From: a virus | Lineage: Duplodnaviria; Caudoviricetes | DNA length: 27,288 nucleotides | Direction: 5' to 3' (one strand) | IMG/VR virus record: IMGVR_UViG_3300034061_000103 | Coordinates: 1-27,288 of that record | In this document: positions 18,615 to 25,675 of the stretch, one piece after another | Position numbering within the stretch: position 1 is the stretch's first letter | Layout of the letters: each line of letters opens with the position of its first letter | Notes under the pieces: model-generated | The model's input: the letters and a program-made list of their open reading frames with translations, nothing else | What the model was told of the DNA's origin: nothing | Databases searched by the model: none | Program-made: the position numbers and the translations under genes

Positions 18615-18644
18615 GATGAGCGGTAAATATTAAGGATAAGCGGT
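18615..18644. repeat. Imperfect 10-bp direct repeat GATRAGCGGT, period 20 bp
   Basis: gatgagcggt at 18615-18624 and gataagcggt at 18635-18644. Confidence 0.6.
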
Positions 18645-19792
18645 TAAAGGAAGGCGTACCTGCCTGTACCTCGCTTCAAACTAAAGTTTTGCCAAGCAAG
18701 AGCTAAACTCATTACGGCGTCATCGTGAAAGCCTGAAGGTGCTGAGTACTTAACACCTGTTGCAGTATATTGATACTCAAATACTTCTAACTCCTGACTG
18801 ATTATCCCCTCAGGGTAGCCTATCTTACCTTGATGTATGGCAGCCTGTAACCCTTCCATTAGTTGTTGTTTACTTGAACTTGTGAACTTTAAGCCTTGTA
18901 TCATTACCCCTTCTCTTTGTAGGTCTTCAAGTATCGGGTCGCCAACCCCCGTAGAATCGACAAGGATAGGGCATTTAGGCAGCCTAAGTATAGTTTGCTT
19001 GGTATTGTGCCAATCCATTTGAAAGCGGTCAAAATAAGCCACATTCCCGTCTTCGTCTAATCCTACGATAACAGTCCAATCGACTGACTTGGCTAAGTCA
19101 ATCCCATAAGCTACAACAGGCATTGTTGTTACTGGGTGTATGCACTTTCGAATATGCTGACTCCCAAATGGGTTTGCTGCGTTCTCGGCAGGGTTTGCCA
19201 TATACTCTTGCTCGAAAACAACTTCTGGCAGTTGCCTACGGGCATCGTCTATCTCTTGTGGGTCTATGTAAGGGTTATCGTATGTAGTGAACTTAAAGCT
19301 TTGCCAATCGGGTTCGGCTTTGCTAAACAAACTAAAGAAGTAGTTTTTACCTTTAGGGGTGCTAAGGAATATAGCTTTACCCTTATAGTCAGTTAAGGTA
19401 GGTCTTATCGAGTTGAGCCACCCGTCTTCTAAGTTAGGTATAAAGGAAGCCTCGTCTACTATTACCAGGTTAAACTTGCGCCCTCTTAAGTTGTCCAAGC
19501 GTTCGCCTGTAAAGAACTCGACCTTGCCACCATTTGGGAAGCTAATATTTAAGTCCGATTTGTTATTAGGGAAGGGAAGGCTATTACATAACTTCTCAAA
19601 GAATACCTTAGCCAATTTATAGGTAGGTGTTATGTAAGCTACCTGACCGCCTTTTATTGCGGTTGTAATACATTTGATTTGGCTCAACTCCGATTTGCCA
19701 AACCTTCGACCGCACATAACTACTATGTACCTGGCTTCGCAGTCAAGTATCTTCTTTTGGTTTATATGTCCGTTAGGTAGTTCTATCCGCAT
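18644..19792 (-). CDS. terL: Terminase large subunit
   Basis: Walker A CGRRFGKS, Walker B VIVDEA, motif III FLSTPKG, nuclease YGIDLA and HDDAVMSLALA. Confidence 0.95.
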   Translation of the reverse strand: MRIELPNGHINQKKILDCEARYIVVMCGRRFGKSELSQIKCITTAIKGGQVAYITPTYKLAKVFFEKLCNSLPFPNNKSDLNISFPNGGKVEFFTGERLDNLRGRKFNLVIVDEASFIPNLEDGWLNSIRPTLTDYKGKAIFLSTPKGKNYFFSLFSKAEPDWQSFKFTTYDNPYIDPQEIDDARRQLPEVVFEQEYMANPAENAANPFGSQHIRKCIHPVTTMPVVAYGIDLAKSVDWTVIVGLDEDGNVAYFDRFQMDWHNTKQTILRLPKCPILVDSTGVGDPILEDLQREGVMIQGLKFTSSSKQQLMEGLQAAIHQGKIGYPEGIISQELEVFEYQYTATGVKYSAPSGFHDDAVMSLALAWQNFSLKRGTGRYAFL

Positions 19793-20154
19793 TAAAGAAT
19801 TGTCTTGCCGTCTACAAATACTATCTCTATTCTGTTATCTGTTTGAATATCCATTTGTTCTTTTGGCTTACCATAAACACGGGTAAGTAAAGTTTCTAAA
19901 CTATAAAGGCTGCCCTTCTCTAAGCTCTTACGCATAGCTGCTGCAATCGTTTTTTCAAGTATTGTTGCCTTGGGGTTATCCCATACTGTTTTAAGTTCCT
20001 CTAAGTCCATAGACATCATAGCTTGTATGGTATCGTTTATCTCAGCAAGTTTATATCCTTGCTCTTTAAGTAGGCTTACATACTTACGAGGTCTGCCGTT
20101 TGGGTTTCTTATCTCACCTTTTTGAACTGGCTTTAAATTATGTTCGTTTGCCAT
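19792..20154 (-). CDS. terS: Terminase small subunit (DUF5681-like N-terminus)
   Basis: NLKP..KGEIRNPNGRP N-terminal motif, RVYGKPKE C-terminal motif; directly upstream of terL with a 1-nt overlap. Confidence 0.75.
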   Translation of the reverse strand: MANEHNLKPVQKGEIRNPNGRPRKYVSLLKEQGYKLAEINDTIQAMMSMDLEELKTVWDNPKATILEKTIAAAMRKSLEKGSLYSLETLLTRVYGKPKEQMDIQTDNRIEIVFVDGKTIL

Positions 20155-20181
20155 ATCTTCTTATTTATCTCTTTGTTATTG

Positions 20182-20254
20182 AGCGGTAAGGTCGGTACTG
20201 CCCCGCCTTCTTTAATCTGGATTGACTAACGCATTACTTTTATGCTATAACCGC
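20182..20254 (-). tRNA. Non-canonical tRNA-Gly(UCC)-like element
   Basis: GCGGTTA-TA-GCAT-AAAAGTA-ATGC-G-TTAGT-CAATCCAG-ATTAA-AGAA-GGCGG-GGCAGTA-CCG(A)CC-TTACCGC-T folds as a cloverleaf: acceptor 6/7 bp, perfect D stem, UCC in the anticodon loop, U73; followed by CAA rather than CCA. Confidence 0.7.
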
Positions 20255-20872
20255 TTTTTTTGGATAATCTTTTTTTAATTTATTGCACAAATCTAACATT
20301 GTATTATGTAATGGATAAATATATTTTAATTTTCCTTTTGTTATATATTCAACAATATTATTTGTTTTATATACTAATTTAATGTTATTTATGTTTTTTG
20401 TATAACCAAATCTTTTGCACTTATCGGATATAGATTTTCCATGTATTCTTTTTCCGTCTATTACAAAACTGCCGTCTTTTTTATCTTCTAATGAAGCACC
20501 TACATAATACCAATTTGTTGCTTGATATATTACACCTGTATGTTCTTGGTCTTTATCAGCATAGCTAACAATTAATTTAGCCATAGGTACTAACTTCTTA
20601 ATTAATTTTAATGAGATAGATAATGCCTTAGATGTACTTTCTTGTTTTCCGTTTAGTGCCATTCTAACTAATTCTATAACTTGTCCTTGATTTAACCCAT
20701 AAGTATTTGCAATATTATTATTGGCTCCTGTGCCATATAAAATTACTCCGCACCACTCATTGTTATTATTGAATATAGAAAAACCAATAGTATTAACTGG
20801 CATTGATTTTGAATAATGAAAATTCAAACAAGCGTATTTTATAGCCTTATATGAAGCTTTTTCTAATCTCAT
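20240..20872 (-). CDS. mom: Mom-family adenine modification enzyme (GNAT fold)
   Basis: FHYS, GVILYG, ELVRMAL, SKALS.SLK, VSYAD..Q.HTGVIYQATNWYYVG and terminal KYIYPL...YPK align with phage Mu Mom motifs (HYS, ELNRMW, SFAD...GVVYQASNF, YPK). Confidence 0.85.
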   Translation of the reverse strand: MRLEKASYKAIKYACLNFHYSKSMPVNTIGFSIFNNNNEWCGVILYGTGANNNIANTYGLNQGQVIELVRMALNGKQESTSKALSISLKLIKKLVPMAKLIVSYADKDQEHTGVIYQATNWYYVGASLEDKKDGSFVIDGKRIHGKSISDKCKRFGYTKNINNIKLVYKTNNIVEYITKGKLKYIYPLHNTMLDLCNKLKKDYPKKAVIA

Positions 20873-21405
20873 AATTCTCCTGCCGATACTGAAAAAAATG
20901 CCTTAGGATATTTTCTATCTATCAATTCTACTATATCTATTTCTGCTTGTTGTAAATCTTCTACTGTATCAAATGTAATTTTTATTGTAGGTGGTTTATT
21001 TTTTTTATCTTCTGTTAATTCGTCTTCGCTTGGTAATTCCATAAAGCCAGGTATATCTAACCCCCAATCTATTAGCTGCTCACTATCCCAATTGTTAGCT
21101 AAATCATTCCAATCCCATTCGCCATAGCCTACGTTATCTTTAACTATAAATTCCTTTTGCTGCTGCTCGGTTAATTCACTTGCCTTAATGATAGGTATCT
21201 CTTTAAGTCCTGCTTCCTTACAAGCCTTTAATCTCATATTGCCACCAAGGACAACCATATCGTCATTAACTACAATAGGTCTAAGGTTAAGCATTTGTGG
21301 GAACTCGTTAATTGACTTAACAAGCTTTGCAAACTTATCGTCCTTAATTATTCTGGGGTTGTTTGGGTTTGCTTTTACTGTGTTGATTGGTACGTTTTGT
21401 ATCAT
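20869..21405 (-). CDS. ParB/Srx-like N-terminal domain protein
   Basis: NPNNPRII...KLVKSI.EFP.ML.LRPIVV...VLGGNMRLKA...IVKDNVGYGEWD, the phage ParB-N type often linked to DNA modification genes. Confidence 0.85.
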   Translation of the reverse strand: MIQNVPINTVKANPNNPRIIKDDKFAKLVKSINEFPQMLNLRPIVVNDDMVVLGGNMRLKACKEAGLKEIPIIKASELTEQQQKEFIVKDNVGYGEWDWNDLANNWDSEQLIDWGLDIPGFMELPSEDELTEDKKNKPPTIKITFDTVEDLQQAEIDIVELIDRKYPKAFFSVSAGEL

Positions 21406-22043: not shown

Positions 22044-22469
22044 TTATTTTCCGTCTATTTCTTTTAACTTATTGATTGCGTACTCAATACCACTCGTACC
22101 ACCCCACGCGTCCCAGGCAAGACCGCCACAACCTTCGCTATAAGGAACGTCTTTGTGTTGTTGATGTCTTTTAAACGAAGCCATACGAGCAATAGTGTCT
22201 CTACTAATCGGCTCACGATTTGCCAACTGCCTTGCTCTTGCTTTGCCTGTTGCTTCAAGACAAGAACCCCAACCATTTTTATCTGCCCATTCTATTGCCC
22301 TCTTTGCGTTGTTAGTTGCACTTTCAGGATAGTCGGTATAAGATTCAGCAAATTTACCACCTGCAAGGATAGCTTTCCAAACTTGCATAGCTTTTTCCTC
22401 GGTATCGTAGATGCAAGACCCGTTTCCAATCCGATATTTGCCATTAGAGGCGCACTTTGTTACTGGCAT
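22044..22469 (-). CDS. Hypothetical protein (SYTDYP..A.NNAKRA...WDAWGG domain)
   Basis: 141-aa ORF; the domain is recalled from phage head-morphogenesis proteins; function unknown. Confidence 0.65.
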   Translation of the reverse strand: MPVTKCASNGKYRIGNGSCIYDTEEKAMQVWKAILAGGKFAESYTDYPESATNNAKRAIEWADKNGWGSCLEATGKARARQLANREPISRDTIARMASFKRHQQHKDVPYSEGCGGLAWDAWGGTSGIEYAINKLKEIDGK

Positions 22470-23455
22470 AGTTTACTATAAATATACTTTCGGTCTAAAT
22501 TTATCTCGTCAAAGTTATACTTCTTTTGGCAGAACTCAAATAACTTCTGTCCGCTTTCCTTTCGCATATCCGCATCGCTGACTAAATCTCTTATATGTTT
22601 ATACCAATCCTTTTGGCTTTTAACGTAATGCACGGGCATATCTAAGTAAGGATTGACGTGGCTAACTATGGCAGGGTTCTTTTTAGCAGCCGTTTCTAAT
22701 ACCTTTAAATTTGACTTCATAGCGTTAAACTTGTTATCTACCAATGGGATAATTGAAATATCGCTATCCGTATAAGCACCCATATATTCCGTAACCTTTG
22801 CATAGTTATAGATCGTAGGGTTTAACTTTAGTCCGCAAGTGAAGGCATCTATCATTTTATCCCATATAGGTTTCTCCCCGTCATTGTAACCTGCTATTAC
22901 AGTTCTTATATTCATACCTTGTAACCTTTTAAAAGGCTGCCTAAGTATCTCTAAATCTCTTTCGTGCGTTCCGCTACCGCTCCAGAACAATCTAACTTTG
23001 TAATCTTCGGTCTTGTTGTCCTGGAACTGCTCTTTGCCGTAAGGTAATGCGTTAGGTAATATGTGAACGTTTTTATTGTATTTGGTTATCTCACTTGCCA
23101 ACCTTTCGTGTGTGCAAGTGCATAGGTCTGCTATCTCTAAGTAATCGGTAATTTGTTTACCTATGTTATTGTACTTGTATCTCCAATATAACAAATGGCT
23201 TTCGCTAAGTTCCCAGTGGTCATCATTGTCTACTACTAATTTAAACCCATACTTAGTGCGCCAAGTGTCCATTTGCTTTGCATCTATCTCGTTAAGCATT
23301 CTATTCATTAAGACAATATCCCACCCTTGCTCTAATAGTTCGTCATTAAGTACGTCTGTAATAAGTGCATACTCTTTTTCCATATTAACGATTGGCATCA
23401 TAATTCGGTGGTAGCCAACTCCCGAGTTAGCAGAAGTTATACAAAGTATTCGCAT
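22460..23455 (-). CDS. Glycosyltransferase, GT-B fold (GT4-like)
   Basis: SGVGYHRIMMP, VVDNDD.W, LPNAL, WSGSGTHERDL, DISIIPL.DNKFNAMKSNLKVLE motifs. Confidence 0.85.
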   Translation of the reverse strand: MRILCITSANSGVGYHRIMMPIVNMEKEYALITDVLNDELLEQGWDIVLMNRMLNEIDAKQMDTWRTKYGFKLVVDNDDHWELSESHLLYWRYKYNNIGKQITDYLEIADLCTCTHERLASEITKYNKNVHILPNALPYGKEQFQDNKTEDYKVRLFWSGSGTHERDLEILRQPFKRLQGMNIRTVIAGYNDGEKPIWDKMIDAFTCGLKLNPTIYNYAKVTEYMGAYTDSDISIIPLVDNKFNAMKSNLKVLETAAKKNPAIVSHVNPYLDMPVHYVKSQKDWYKHIRDLVSDADMRKESGQKLFEFCQKKYNFDEINLDRKYIYSKLCQ

Positions 23456-24120
23456 CTTATATTCTTTTGGTTGTGATATATGTCTTGGTTTTTATTCCAT
23501 ATACTTTGCGCCCTTGCCAAGCTTTCGTCTTTCATTCGTCTATATTCAGTTCCGTTGCCTACATCGTGTCCTATGTGTTCCGACCTCATATCTGGAAGGT
23601 AGTAATTAGTAAATCCTGAAATAGTTGCACGTTCTCCGTAATCTGCATCTTGCATTCCGTATGGGTCATACTCGGTATTGTAACCGCCTATCGTGTCTAT
23701 GAGTTCACGAGTAATAAAGTTATCTCCATAAGGTGTATGTACTTTATGCACCCCGTCTACTATTGGCGGTAATGCTTCTACACAATGTATTCCTATTATG
23801 CCTGTTTTTTCTATTCTTTGTGCAAACAATACAAACTTTGCTAACCAATTCTCAGGCAGTAATATGTCATTGGCTAATAAACAAACTGCATCGTAATTAG
23901 TAGTAAGCCTAAGTCCTGCGTTTACTCCTGCTGATATTCCTCGTTTTTCTTTTGATAAGTCATAACCTGCAAACGGGTAGTTAAAGGTTTCCTGCGTGTC
24001 GCTTCCGTTATCTATTAAAAAGCAATCAGCATTGTAACCGCTATTGTAAAAGTTTTGGTTAATTACACGCTGCGTTAAATCTTGCCTATTAAGAGTAAGT
24101 AATAAAATAGCTACTTTCAT
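23437..24120 (-). CDS. Glycosyltransferase, GT-A fold (GT2-like)
   Basis: LIDNGS, GISAGVNAGL, LLANDI, IGGYNTEYDPYGMQDADYGER motifs. Confidence 0.85.
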   Translation of the reverse strand: MKVAILLLTLNRQDLTQRVINQNFYNSGYNADCFLIDNGSDTQETFNYPFAGYDLSKEKRGISAGVNAGLRLTTNYDAVCLLANDILLPENWLAKFVLFAQRIEKTGIIGIHCVEALPPIVDGVHKVHTPYGDNFITRELIDTIGGYNTEYDPYGMQDADYGERATISGFTNYYLPDMRSEHIGHDVGNGTEYRRMKDESLARAQSIWNKNQDIYHNQKNIRCEYFV

Positions 24121-24599
24121 TATCTTATGTTTGAGCCGATTTCTCGTGCAGGTACTCCTGCATATTTAGTATTAGGTTTTGCATCTCCTTTTACAAAAGC
24201 ACTTGCTCCTATCATACAATTTTCTCCTACGTTTGCAAACTGATGTAGAACTGCGTTAAGTCCTATATTAGCACCTTGATCTATAATTGAATGTCCGCCT
24301 ATTTTTGCTCCGCAGCTTATTGTAACATTGTCTAAAATTGTGCAATCGTGTCCAATATGTGCGTGTTTCATTATGAAACAATTATTACCGATAAAGGTAT
24401 CAATCTCCGTACCTGCGTCTATTGTTACAAGTCCTGTAATAACATTGTTATCGCCTATGTATACTTTGCCTTTTTCTTTTTGCCAGAACTTTTTATGCTC
24501 GGCTTTGTCGCCTATAATACAATAAGCACCAATGTAGTTGCCATCTCCAATAATTACGTTATCGCCAATGATAGCGGTAGGGTGGATAAAGTTAGCCAT
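24120..24599 (-). CDS. Left-handed beta-helix acyltransferase (LpxA-like hexapeptide repeat)
   Basis: IHPTAIIG, hexapeptide repeats, HAHIGHDC (LpxA-type His motif), C-terminal AGVPAR. Confidence 0.88.
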   Translation of the reverse strand: MANFIHPTAIIGDNVIIGDGNYIGAYCIIGDKAEHKKFWQKEKGKVYIGDNNVITGLVTIDAGTEIDTFIGNNCFIMKHAHIGHDCTILDNVTISCGAKIGGHSIIDQGANIGLNAVLHQFANVGENCMIGASAFVKGDAKPNTKYAGVPAREIGSNIR

Positions 24600-25063: not shown

Positions 25064-25675
25064 TTAAAACATTTTTATTTGTTGTATATGTGTATTATAT
25101 CTTTTTAATGCTGCTTCATAGTATTGAGTATCTAACTCACAAGCGGTTAAATCAAATCCGTAATCGTGACAAGCTATTGCAATACTACCAGAACCTAAAT
25201 GTGTATCAAGTATTTTATCTCCTGACTTTGCATATTTATCTAAAAGCCATTTGTATAGTTTAATTGGTTTTTGAGTTGGGTGTATTTTATTTGCTCCACC
25301 CATGCCACTCATGTCATATTGCCTTGTAGCTTTATCAAATGAAGTCCAAGCAAGTTCTCCGTCTGCAAATGTCATTCCTTGTTGTTTAAACCAAAAAATC
25401 CATCCTTGGCTTGGTTTTAAAAATTCAGTAAAATAATTACCGCCCCATATAATTTGATTTATAGAAACTCTTTTTAATTCATCAAAATATTTTTTATTAG
25501 GTATTTCTTTGTCCCAATTTTTAAGTTCCCATTTTTTAAATCCACTACTTTTAGGCATACCTCCACTGTGTAATCTATTTATACCATAAGGAGGGTCTAC
25601 AATAGCAAGTTCAAAATATCCATTAGGATAACGTGACATTAACTCCATATTATCTTCATTAGTTAATGTTATCAT
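25064..25675 (-). CDS. DNA methyltransferase (N6-adenine/N4-cytosine, beta class)
   Basis: Catalytic IVDPPYG precedes HPTQKP and SAM-binding ILDTHLGSGS. Confidence 0.93.
   Translation of the reverse strand: MITLTNEDNMELMSRYPNGYFELAIVDPPYGINRLHSGGMPKSSGFKKWELKNWDKEIPNKKYFDELKRVSINQIIWGGNYFTEFLKPSQGWIFWFKQQGMTFADGELAWTSFDKATRQYDMSGMGGANKIHPTQKPIKLYKWLLDKYAKSGDKILDTHLGSGSIAIACHDYGFDLTACELDTQYYEAALKRYNTHIQQIKMF

Follow-up and report, generated by a model that had tools for sequence, protein, structure and literature searches.

In phage Mu, Gly-tRNA-Gly is the source of the glycine that the Mom protein places on adenine N6 of double-stranded DNA; the product rearranges to 6-NcmdA, which blocks restriction (Silva et al. 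2026, PMC13219725). According to the same paper, all three E. coli tRNA-Gly serve as donor and glycine on tRNA-Ala fails, so the body of the tRNA matters; its discussion regards the donor as something that the host supplies, and a phage-encoded tRNA goes unmentioned in the main text and in one searched supplementary file. The use of Gly-tRNA-Gly by Mom, which the initial annotation of the DNA described here had put forward, is thus in print for Mu Mom. The present locus raises a further question: what is a tRNA-Gly-like RNA doing at the 3' end of a phage mom gene? Judged from the sequences of this RNA and its relatives, it would be a non-translating glycine donor reserved for Mom, a reading to which we give a probability of roughly three in four.

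The window, meaning the whole stretch of 27,288 nucleotides analysed, is a phage contig of 27 kb with 36% G+C and its main genes all on the minus strand. The gene for the ParB-N protein comes first, followed by mom and the tRNA-like RNA; next are the genes of the putative small and the large terminase subunits, and after these the head and tail genes (Table 1); the small subunit is so named, putatively, because it lies directly before the terminase large subunit. A promoter and terminator scan gave no excess over chance (8 vs 9.5; 1 vs 1.0). The closest named relatives of the window's Mom are mostly in Bacteroidota records, and the host is therefore probably a bacteroidete. Upstream on the minus strand (22460-24599, 25064-25675) lie two glycosyltransferase genes, one matching phrog_7162 and the other a probable one, together with a gene resembling hexapeptide-repeat acyltransferases and a separate N6/N4 methyltransferase; given these genes, the phage may have further modification systems.

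Table 1. Features around the tRNA-Gly-like RNA, in window positions.
Feature	Position	Strand	Basis or remark
ParB N-terminal-domain protein	20869..21405	-	Pfam ParB_N E 2.3e-8; upstream border of exchangeable DNA-modifier slot
GNAT enzyme of Mom family (210 aa), predicted to transfer glycyl to adenine N6 of DNA	20240..20872	-	profile matches
tRNA-Gly-like RNA, 73 nt, G1 to discriminator U73	20182..20254	-	sequence; overlaps last four mom codons and stop
Acceptor stem 5' strand GCGGUUA (G1, C2, G3 identity pairs; U6.U67 mismatch)	20248..20254	-	pairs with 20183-20189
D arm, 4 bp, loop AAAAGUA without GG; mom stop codon inside	20231..20245	-	all 4 pairs covary
Anticodon arm, 6 bp including extra C-G pair, loop AAUCCA, no U33	20212..20229	-	6/6 pairs covary
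Anticodon UCC	20221-20219	-	sequence
T arm: GG/CC, bulged A at 20192, three further pairs, loop GGCAGUA	20190..20207	-	fold and sequence; flanking pairs covary
Acceptor stem 3' strand UUACCGC and discriminator U73	20182..20189	-	sequence
Trailer CAA (CCA not encoded)	20179..20181	-	sequence; sister phages without mom match again just after trailer
Putative terminase small subunit	19792..20154	-	weak sub-cut-off DUF5681 match; downstream border of slot
Terminase large subunit	18644-19792	-	directly after putative small subunit gene

The protein partner is the easier half of the locus to name. It matches Pfam Mom PF25680 (E 9.9e-36; 123.7 bits against a cut-off of 27.1; positions 6-202 of 202), phrog_1384 (E 1.9e-45) and Mu Mom itself (PDB 8BV8, E 1e-8, residues 46-176 of 8BV8), which bears out the Mom homologue that had been proposed for this reading frame; the family's GNAT fold with an HTH-like insertion is predicted for it from the same matches. 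Silva et al. 2026 (PMC13219725) name seven putative active-site residues in Mu Mom, and six are identical in the window enzyme, including the catalytic R111 and S124: Mu H58, Y59, R111, S124, D149 and Y159 align to H19, Y20, R70, S81, D106 and Y116. The seventh, R151, which that paper reports as essential, is aligned to D108; D stands there in 10 of 15 alignment rows and R in none. This lowers the case for the same active site as Mu, and membership of PF25680 is unaffected. The locus also differs from that of Mu in lacking a com gene, in its site between parB and terminase genes and in the RNA itself: Mu has no such RNA beside mom and uses host tRNA-Gly.

The RNA begins within the coding sequence. 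The last codons of mom, GCG GTT ATA GCA TAA (A-V-I-A-stop), also make up the 5' strand of the acceptor stem, positions 8-9 and the first part of the D arm, so that direct reading confirms the 73-nt overlapping cloverleaf of the initial annotation. The glycyl-tRNA synthetase identity set listed there is likewise in the sequence (G1-C72, C2-G71, G3-C70, U73 and UCC, with C35 and C36), and so are the departures from a translating tRNA: the RNA is without all four of a 7-nt anticodon loop with U33, a D-loop GG, a UUC T loop and a regular 5-bp T stem. The anticodon loop is 6 nt long with its closing C-G pair and 8 nt if that pair is opened, and A, not U, precedes the anticodon. The U6.U67 mismatch in the acceptor stem was absent from the earlier list. 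Detector programs, suggested as a check, do not pass it as a tRNA: ARAGORN calls none, and the Rfam tRNA model reaches 21.3 bits, below its cut-off of 29, only with a 141-nt stretch as query and finds no match with 3 kb as query. A family model, R1, gives it 78.4 bits, the window having been in R1's training set. Energy minimisation returns the cloverleaf (z -2.15, with 5/200 shuffles equally good); taken alone, the energy fold is weak, and the proof of an RNA structure is comparative.

That proof comes from relatives, which blastn of the window RNA against cultured phages does not find (chance matches only). In an alignment of 39 distinct sequences, 94.5% of cells are paired and 18/22 pairs change on both sides (0/500 shuffles), with 32-47% paired in controls that slide the partner strand. 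A further 64 sequences, aligned to the model and hence biased towards its structure, give 97.2% paired and 18/21 pairs changing on both sides. The covariation suggested as a check is thus present as compensatory changes in all four stems. Pairs 1-72, 2-71 and 3-70 and C35 are invariant in the 39 sequences, the bulged A occurs in 39/39, and acceptor pairs 4-7 covary, taking up to four forms. Across the family, G49-C65 is kept in 73/76 and G50-C64 in 71/76 members, with the bulged A. The mom stop codon occurs in all three frames, 3 to 119 nt past G1, and it is therefore the RNA, and not a peptide tail, that is conserved. Selection acts on the cloverleaf, on G1-C72, C2-G71, U73, C35 and C36, and on the bulged A beside pairs 49-65 and 50-64. 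The same elements emerge from an identity-blind scan, which specified only the bulged T arm and a CCA end and neither acceptor nor anticodon: among 86 distinct sequences, G1-C72 is found in 83, C2-G71 in 83, U73 in 80 and CC in 83, and position 3-70 is G3-C70 in 74 and G3.U70 in 9. Two matches with low scores that are not glycine-type (L139 and the second match in L600) are excluded from the counts. By rough estimate, each scan has 450 to 2400 stretches that fit its pattern, some of them by chance.

How closely is this RNA tied to mom? Starting from the protein, it is present at the mom 3' end in 56 of the 80 closest viral mom loci; the 24 without it comprise 23 near-identical loci (59-61% identity) and one contig ending inside mom. 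In cellular genomes it is present in 32 of 80 mom loci and absent from 48. Starting from the RNA, model matches in viral contigs have a Mom-like neighbour in 25/26 and 57/62 cases, and in metagenome contigs 23/26 structurally valid matches adjoin a Mom-like gene. The 57 include one whose neighbour is a DruA gene and one with a mom fragment 1.3 kb away; the other five are two at a contig edge, one with a Mom-like tail at the contig start, one at 1 kb from a weak DruA-like gene, and a true orphan. In the identity-blind scan, 68/80 matches are tRNA-like and 63 of those adjoin mom, adjacency counts leaving out 40-41 short-flank loci of each pattern scan. Recurrence beside mom homologues, one of the checks proposed for the idea, is therefore well borne out. 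A control of 80 sampled phage tRNA-Gly(UCC) separates the two kinds of molecule: 0/77 non-bulged tRNAs lie near mom and 3/3 bulged ones lie beside it (p 1.2e-5, the flank being the fetched stretch up to 1.5 kb and the loci being related, so that p values overstate independence). The partner enzymes belong to several distant subfamilies, and all those scanned match Pfam Mom or DruA. A FastTree tree of 174 rows is used only to show that the RNA spans distant Mom subfamilies; its 21 changes are an overcount, since L238, L250, L251, L493, L498 and L519 hold the RNA and are labelled RNA-less.

Close relatives of the window show what happens when mom is missing. Among 80 sister phages with a small terminase 90-100% identical, 13 have mom and the RNA and 67 have neither; from this joint presence and absence, mom and the RNA form one interchangeable DNA-modification module. 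In ten inspected mom-less sister slots, an N6/N4 methyltransferase fusion occurs in eight and otherwise a C5 methyltransferase or a TET-associated glycosyltransferase, and the ParB-N protein is fused to a DNA methyltransferase in most inspected sister phages. The slot between parB-N and the small terminase (window 20179-21405; L449-L528) swaps DNA-modifying modules. The boundary with the mom-less sisters falls just past the RNA 3' end, as would be expected if the element were a recombination anchor acting at the DNA level, or a decayed host tRNA, with no function as RNA; at L452, moreover, the RNA is one base different from that of the window while Mom is 48% identical. Such an anchor or relic is barely credible in view of the compensatory changes in all four stems and a derived bulge common to distant Mom subfamilies. 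Nor does the element look like an attachment site: it is a whole covarying cloverleaf, and no integrase was found among its scanned neighbours, which are parB, mom and the terminase genes.

The RNA does not always stand where it stands in the window. Of 168 distinct members, 113 overlap the mom frame on the same strand, 21 are antisense (some of these overlaps involving only a read-through tail) and 18 lie upstream. Enzyme and RNA had been described as physically joined, which is true of the 3' overlap in the window but is only one layout of the family. The prevalence of same-strand overlap would suit a tRNA mimic acting in cis, in which an RNase P cut limits a host-toxic Mom by destroying or separating its message and charging is incidental; in the window a cut at G1 would remove the mom stop codon, and in Mu the regulation of mom is tight (com gene). 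The antisense and upstream members speak against this, as does the spread of the stop codon over three frames and a wide range of distances after G1, and cleavage would need neither the conserved C35/C36 and U73 (83/86 and 80/86 sequences of the identity-blind scan) nor an encoded CCA. We consider control in cis quite unlikely, and in the overlapping layout processing may still couple donor and enzyme.

Some loci have more than one mom, or none. Tandem pairs of Mom-like genes, often of different subfamilies, occur with one RNA in the fetched stretch at L089, L104, L347, L355, L364 and L674. At L102:1499-1572, L404:1499-1573, L611, L656 and L657 a bulged RNA stands as an orphan, the nearest 1.5 kb being free of Mom; those of L102 and L611 sit in terminase regions, as if mom were lost or farther off. 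The RNA is absent from the mom loci of Mu, phiEf11, P12002L, PK3.6, VSiP and Vibrio F100 and from 8/8 plasmid loci, and 5/8 mom loci of cultured phages are without it. Losses cluster, in a qualitative reading of the tree, in Bacteroidales, Bacillota, enterobacteria and actinomycetes, and where mom loci have no RNA, a search with looser settings for more degenerate forms beside them gave none among the matches listed. In the cultured phages, Salinibacter phage B2_17 has the bulged form of the RNA beside mom. Arthrobacter phage BarretLemon has an unannotated RNA overlapping the mom end (L205:2095-2168), with no D-loop GG and a regular stem with a weak A51-U63 pair. Microbacterium phage Appa has an antisense tRNA-Gly(CCC) beside mom, with an ordinary T stem, U33 and CCA. 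A separate idea, that the RNA suppresses frameshifts, was rejected: mom is split at seven loci, three of them RNA-less, and the window mom is intact. The split over two frames at those loci (L204, L737, L562, L551, L539, L547, L591) may be sequencing error, decay or a programmed shift.

Could the RNA then work on ribosomes? A tRNA-Gly that refills a pool drained by Mom would be a translational supplement, and the Appa RNA has just the form that this predicts; about half of the family, too, keeps D-loop GG and a UUC T loop. The feature counts point elsewhere (168 members, L138 and L198 being left out as unparsed; these counts are partly biased by the search patterns, the 76-member or genome-set and 86-sequence counts less so). 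U33 is present in 103/168 members vs 101/105 control tRNA-Gly and absent from 65, D-loop GG is present in 85/168 vs 102/105, and an extra pair closes the anticodon loop in 161/168 vs 24/105. The T stem is bulged in 161/168, the anticodon loop has 8 nt in 68/168, and A replaces U at position 8 in 89/168. Position 34 is free, with the anticodon ACC in 16/32 genome-set members; to our knowledge, glycine tRNAs with A34 hardly occur in bacterial translation. The members at L593:2094-2163, L605:2097-2164, L579, L576, L664, L682, L700 and L704 have a reduced D arm or none and keep the other three arms. Together with the 0/77 ordinary phage tRNA-Gly near mom, the free position 34 and the D-armless members, these numbers make the supplement very unlikely as a reading of the bulged majority; it may apply to Appa-like copies. 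An ordinary 5-bp T stem is found in some mom-linked RNAs (Appa, BarretLemon and 3/32 genome-set members). Synthetase identity elements are kept; drift affects what faces the ribosome, namely U33, the size of the loop, position 34, the GG of the D loop and even the D arm. One sign of a translation defect in the initial annotation, the missing CCA, did not hold up: ordinary phage tRNA-Gly are without an encoded CCA in 43/105 cases, and 64/168 family members have it. A CCA-ended form of the window's own RNA subgroup was found 0 times in metagenome contigs.

The elements conserved in the family match the glycine identity set described in PMC9976931. Where they deviate, the deviations fit the host synthetases, in one case each. 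The single archaeal case, an RNA linked to mom in a Methanobacterium genome (L552:2097-2176; ACC anticodon, U51-A63 within a regular T stem), shares A73 with the two tRNA-Gly genes of its host. The RNA of L491 has A3-U70, a pair that also occurs in the tRNA-Gly(GCC) of a bacteroidete. The chief identity pair for alanine, G3.U70, occurs with U73 and CC kept at L619, L645, L652, L663, L684, L692, L703 and L707, and also at L651 and L492. The mom-linked bulged RNAs of L681 and L691 have an anticodon loop without CC and are exceptions to the identity rule. Conserved identity elements would also be expected of a decoy, or a resistant copy, set against host systems that target tRNA-Gly, such as TacT-type acetylases, FaRel2-type toxins and anticodon nucleases: TacT reads U73 and G71 (PMC9976931), both conserved in the family, and a varied anticodon loop could dodge nucleases. 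A decoy leaves the near-exclusive linkage to mom and the joint gain and loss unexplained, unless the function protected is the supply to Mom, and we hold it to be highly improbable.

A glycine donor reserved for Mom would account for the bulge through EF-Tu. Affinity for EF-Tu is set by pairs 49-65, 50-64 and 51-63 (PMC3239215; PMC7826273), and the T-stem bulge of the family is at the 51-63 position; PMC3239215 gives no measurement for a T-stem bulge, the word 'bulge' being absent from its text. EF-Tu sequesters Gly-tRNA from FmhB, and the staphylococcal solution is a non-proteogenic tRNA-Gly (PMC7826273). Escape from EF-Tu is predicted for the phage RNA. The consequence counts against the donor reading in one respect: Gly-tRNA outside EF-Tu would presumably lose protection from hydrolysis.

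The proposed working of the locus is that of a two-part DNA-modification cassette, made up of the Mom-family enzyme and the conserved tRNA-Gly-like RNA. RNase P cleavage, CCA addition and the handling of non-stop messages are textbook processes. The RNA is likely excised from the transcript; its ends would be made by RNase P of the host and a 3' nuclease, and the CCA-adding enzyme would complete it. With the layout seen in the window, cutting at the 5' end would take place 12 nt ahead of the mom stop codon, so that a transcript would yield enzyme or donor. It is likely charged by host glycyl-tRNA synthetase, and the 51-63 bulge and irregular anticodon loop would keep it out of translation, with poor binding to EF-Tu and ribosome predicted. 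As the RNA would be kept off EF-Tu, Mom, it is proposed, need not compete with that factor. The enzyme would then move glycine from Gly-tRNA-Gly to adenine N6, 6-NcmdA following, as shown for Mu Mom and, by homology, likely for the window enzyme. The private glycine donor of the initial annotation is in this way supported by comparative evidence, with charging, escape from EF-Tu and use by Mom as its predictions. Its word 'dedicated' stands as far as the RNA is tied to mom and goes too far if it means required: Mu Mom uses three E. coli tRNA-Gly and many mom loci are RNA-less, and the RNA would be a booster for Mom. Five sequencing runs cover only small shares of the window, and read-derived contigs include flanking genes but not the mom or RNA of the window; one metatranscriptome contig spans the element and terminase start of the relative L513 and shows presence only.

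The pairing of RNA and enzyme is loose. Over the whole set, distances between RNAs do not correlate with those between Moms (rho 0.02; 114/500 permutations), RNAs being similar only among near-identical Moms, and co-divergence was accordingly rejected overall. This, together with the L452 pairing noted above, suggests a generic protected donor usable by any Mom and not a lock-and-key partner.

Comparison with known systems places the RNA beside the staphylococcal tRNA-Gly NP1-NP3 as described in PMC7826273 and PMC13443448. In both, glycine identity is kept, D-loop GG and U55 are lost, an extra pair shortens the anticodon loop, the EF-Tu site is altered and the partner is a GNAT-fold aminoacyl-tRNA transferase, NP1-NP3 being donors for FmhB, FemA and FemB. 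The T stem of NP1-NP3 is regular and weak (A49-U65, U50-A64, A51-U63), whereas the phage family has the bulged A with G49-C65 and G50-C64; NP1-NP3 are chromosomal, confined to staphylococci and unlinked to the enzyme gene, and their product is peptidoglycan, not DNA. By this analogy the phage RNA would resemble the staphylococcal non-proteogenic tRNA-Gly in its working, and it is outside that lineage. The 8/4 and 9/3 allo-tRNAs and selC* tRNA-Cys of Mukai et al. 2017 (PMC5389517) are also non-canonical cloverleaves with a T-stem bulge, some of them phage-borne, but their acceptor stem has 8 bp, the bulge (51a) is in the 5' strand, they have the identity of Ser, His, Cys or Sec, and their roles are in translation; 'mom' and 'tRNAGly' are absent from the text of that paper.

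An earlier sighting exists. In the ssrA islands of Dehalococcoides, McMurdie et al. 2011 (PMC3146451) describe a 76-bp conserved tRNA-Gly-like structure embedded in mom within a parB-mom module, with a 'DCC' anticodon and a 5-nt loop, in 16 islands of one genus and one deep-sea fosmid, where it served as a primer target. The passages on the element propose no function and take Mom for a methylase. It is very probably a family member of the upstream layout, a comparison that covers features other than the T stem. Apart from this 2011 description, the literature search, which took in few subscription journals, found no paper on the donor role, the bulge signature or the breadth of the family. 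What would be new is the proposed donor function; the enzyme was already known, and the association with mom was noted in 2011.

The DruA (PF14236) gene at L399:859-1602 (minus strand) has a bulged tRNA-Gly-like RNA (1499-1574) at its 5' end, and a weak DruA-like gene (L346:5-505, minus strand) lies 1 kb from another bulged RNA. DruA-family proteins may use aminoacyl-tRNA. It is imaginable, though we think it unlikely, that mobile elements possess a carrier-only class of tRNA, released from ribosomal duty and in some members reduced to a D-armless shape, feeding both Mom and DruA, in which the G3.U70 clade delivers alanine and so gives rise to an undescribed DNA base.

If the donor reading is true, a virus encodes a tRNA for DNA modification and not for translation. 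It would be a second, independent invention of a non-proteogenic tRNA-Gly, made by way of a T-stem bulge and present in hundreds to thousands of phage contigs, and it would answer how Mom gets Gly-tRNA from EF-Tu, a point left by the mechanism of Mom. It would also give a function to a class of phage 'pseudo-tRNAs' that go unseen or are wrongly labelled by detectors. The bulged RNA is a marker that finds distant Mom-like enzymes, and a tRNA to which EF-Tu is blind and which can still be charged would be a useful tool.
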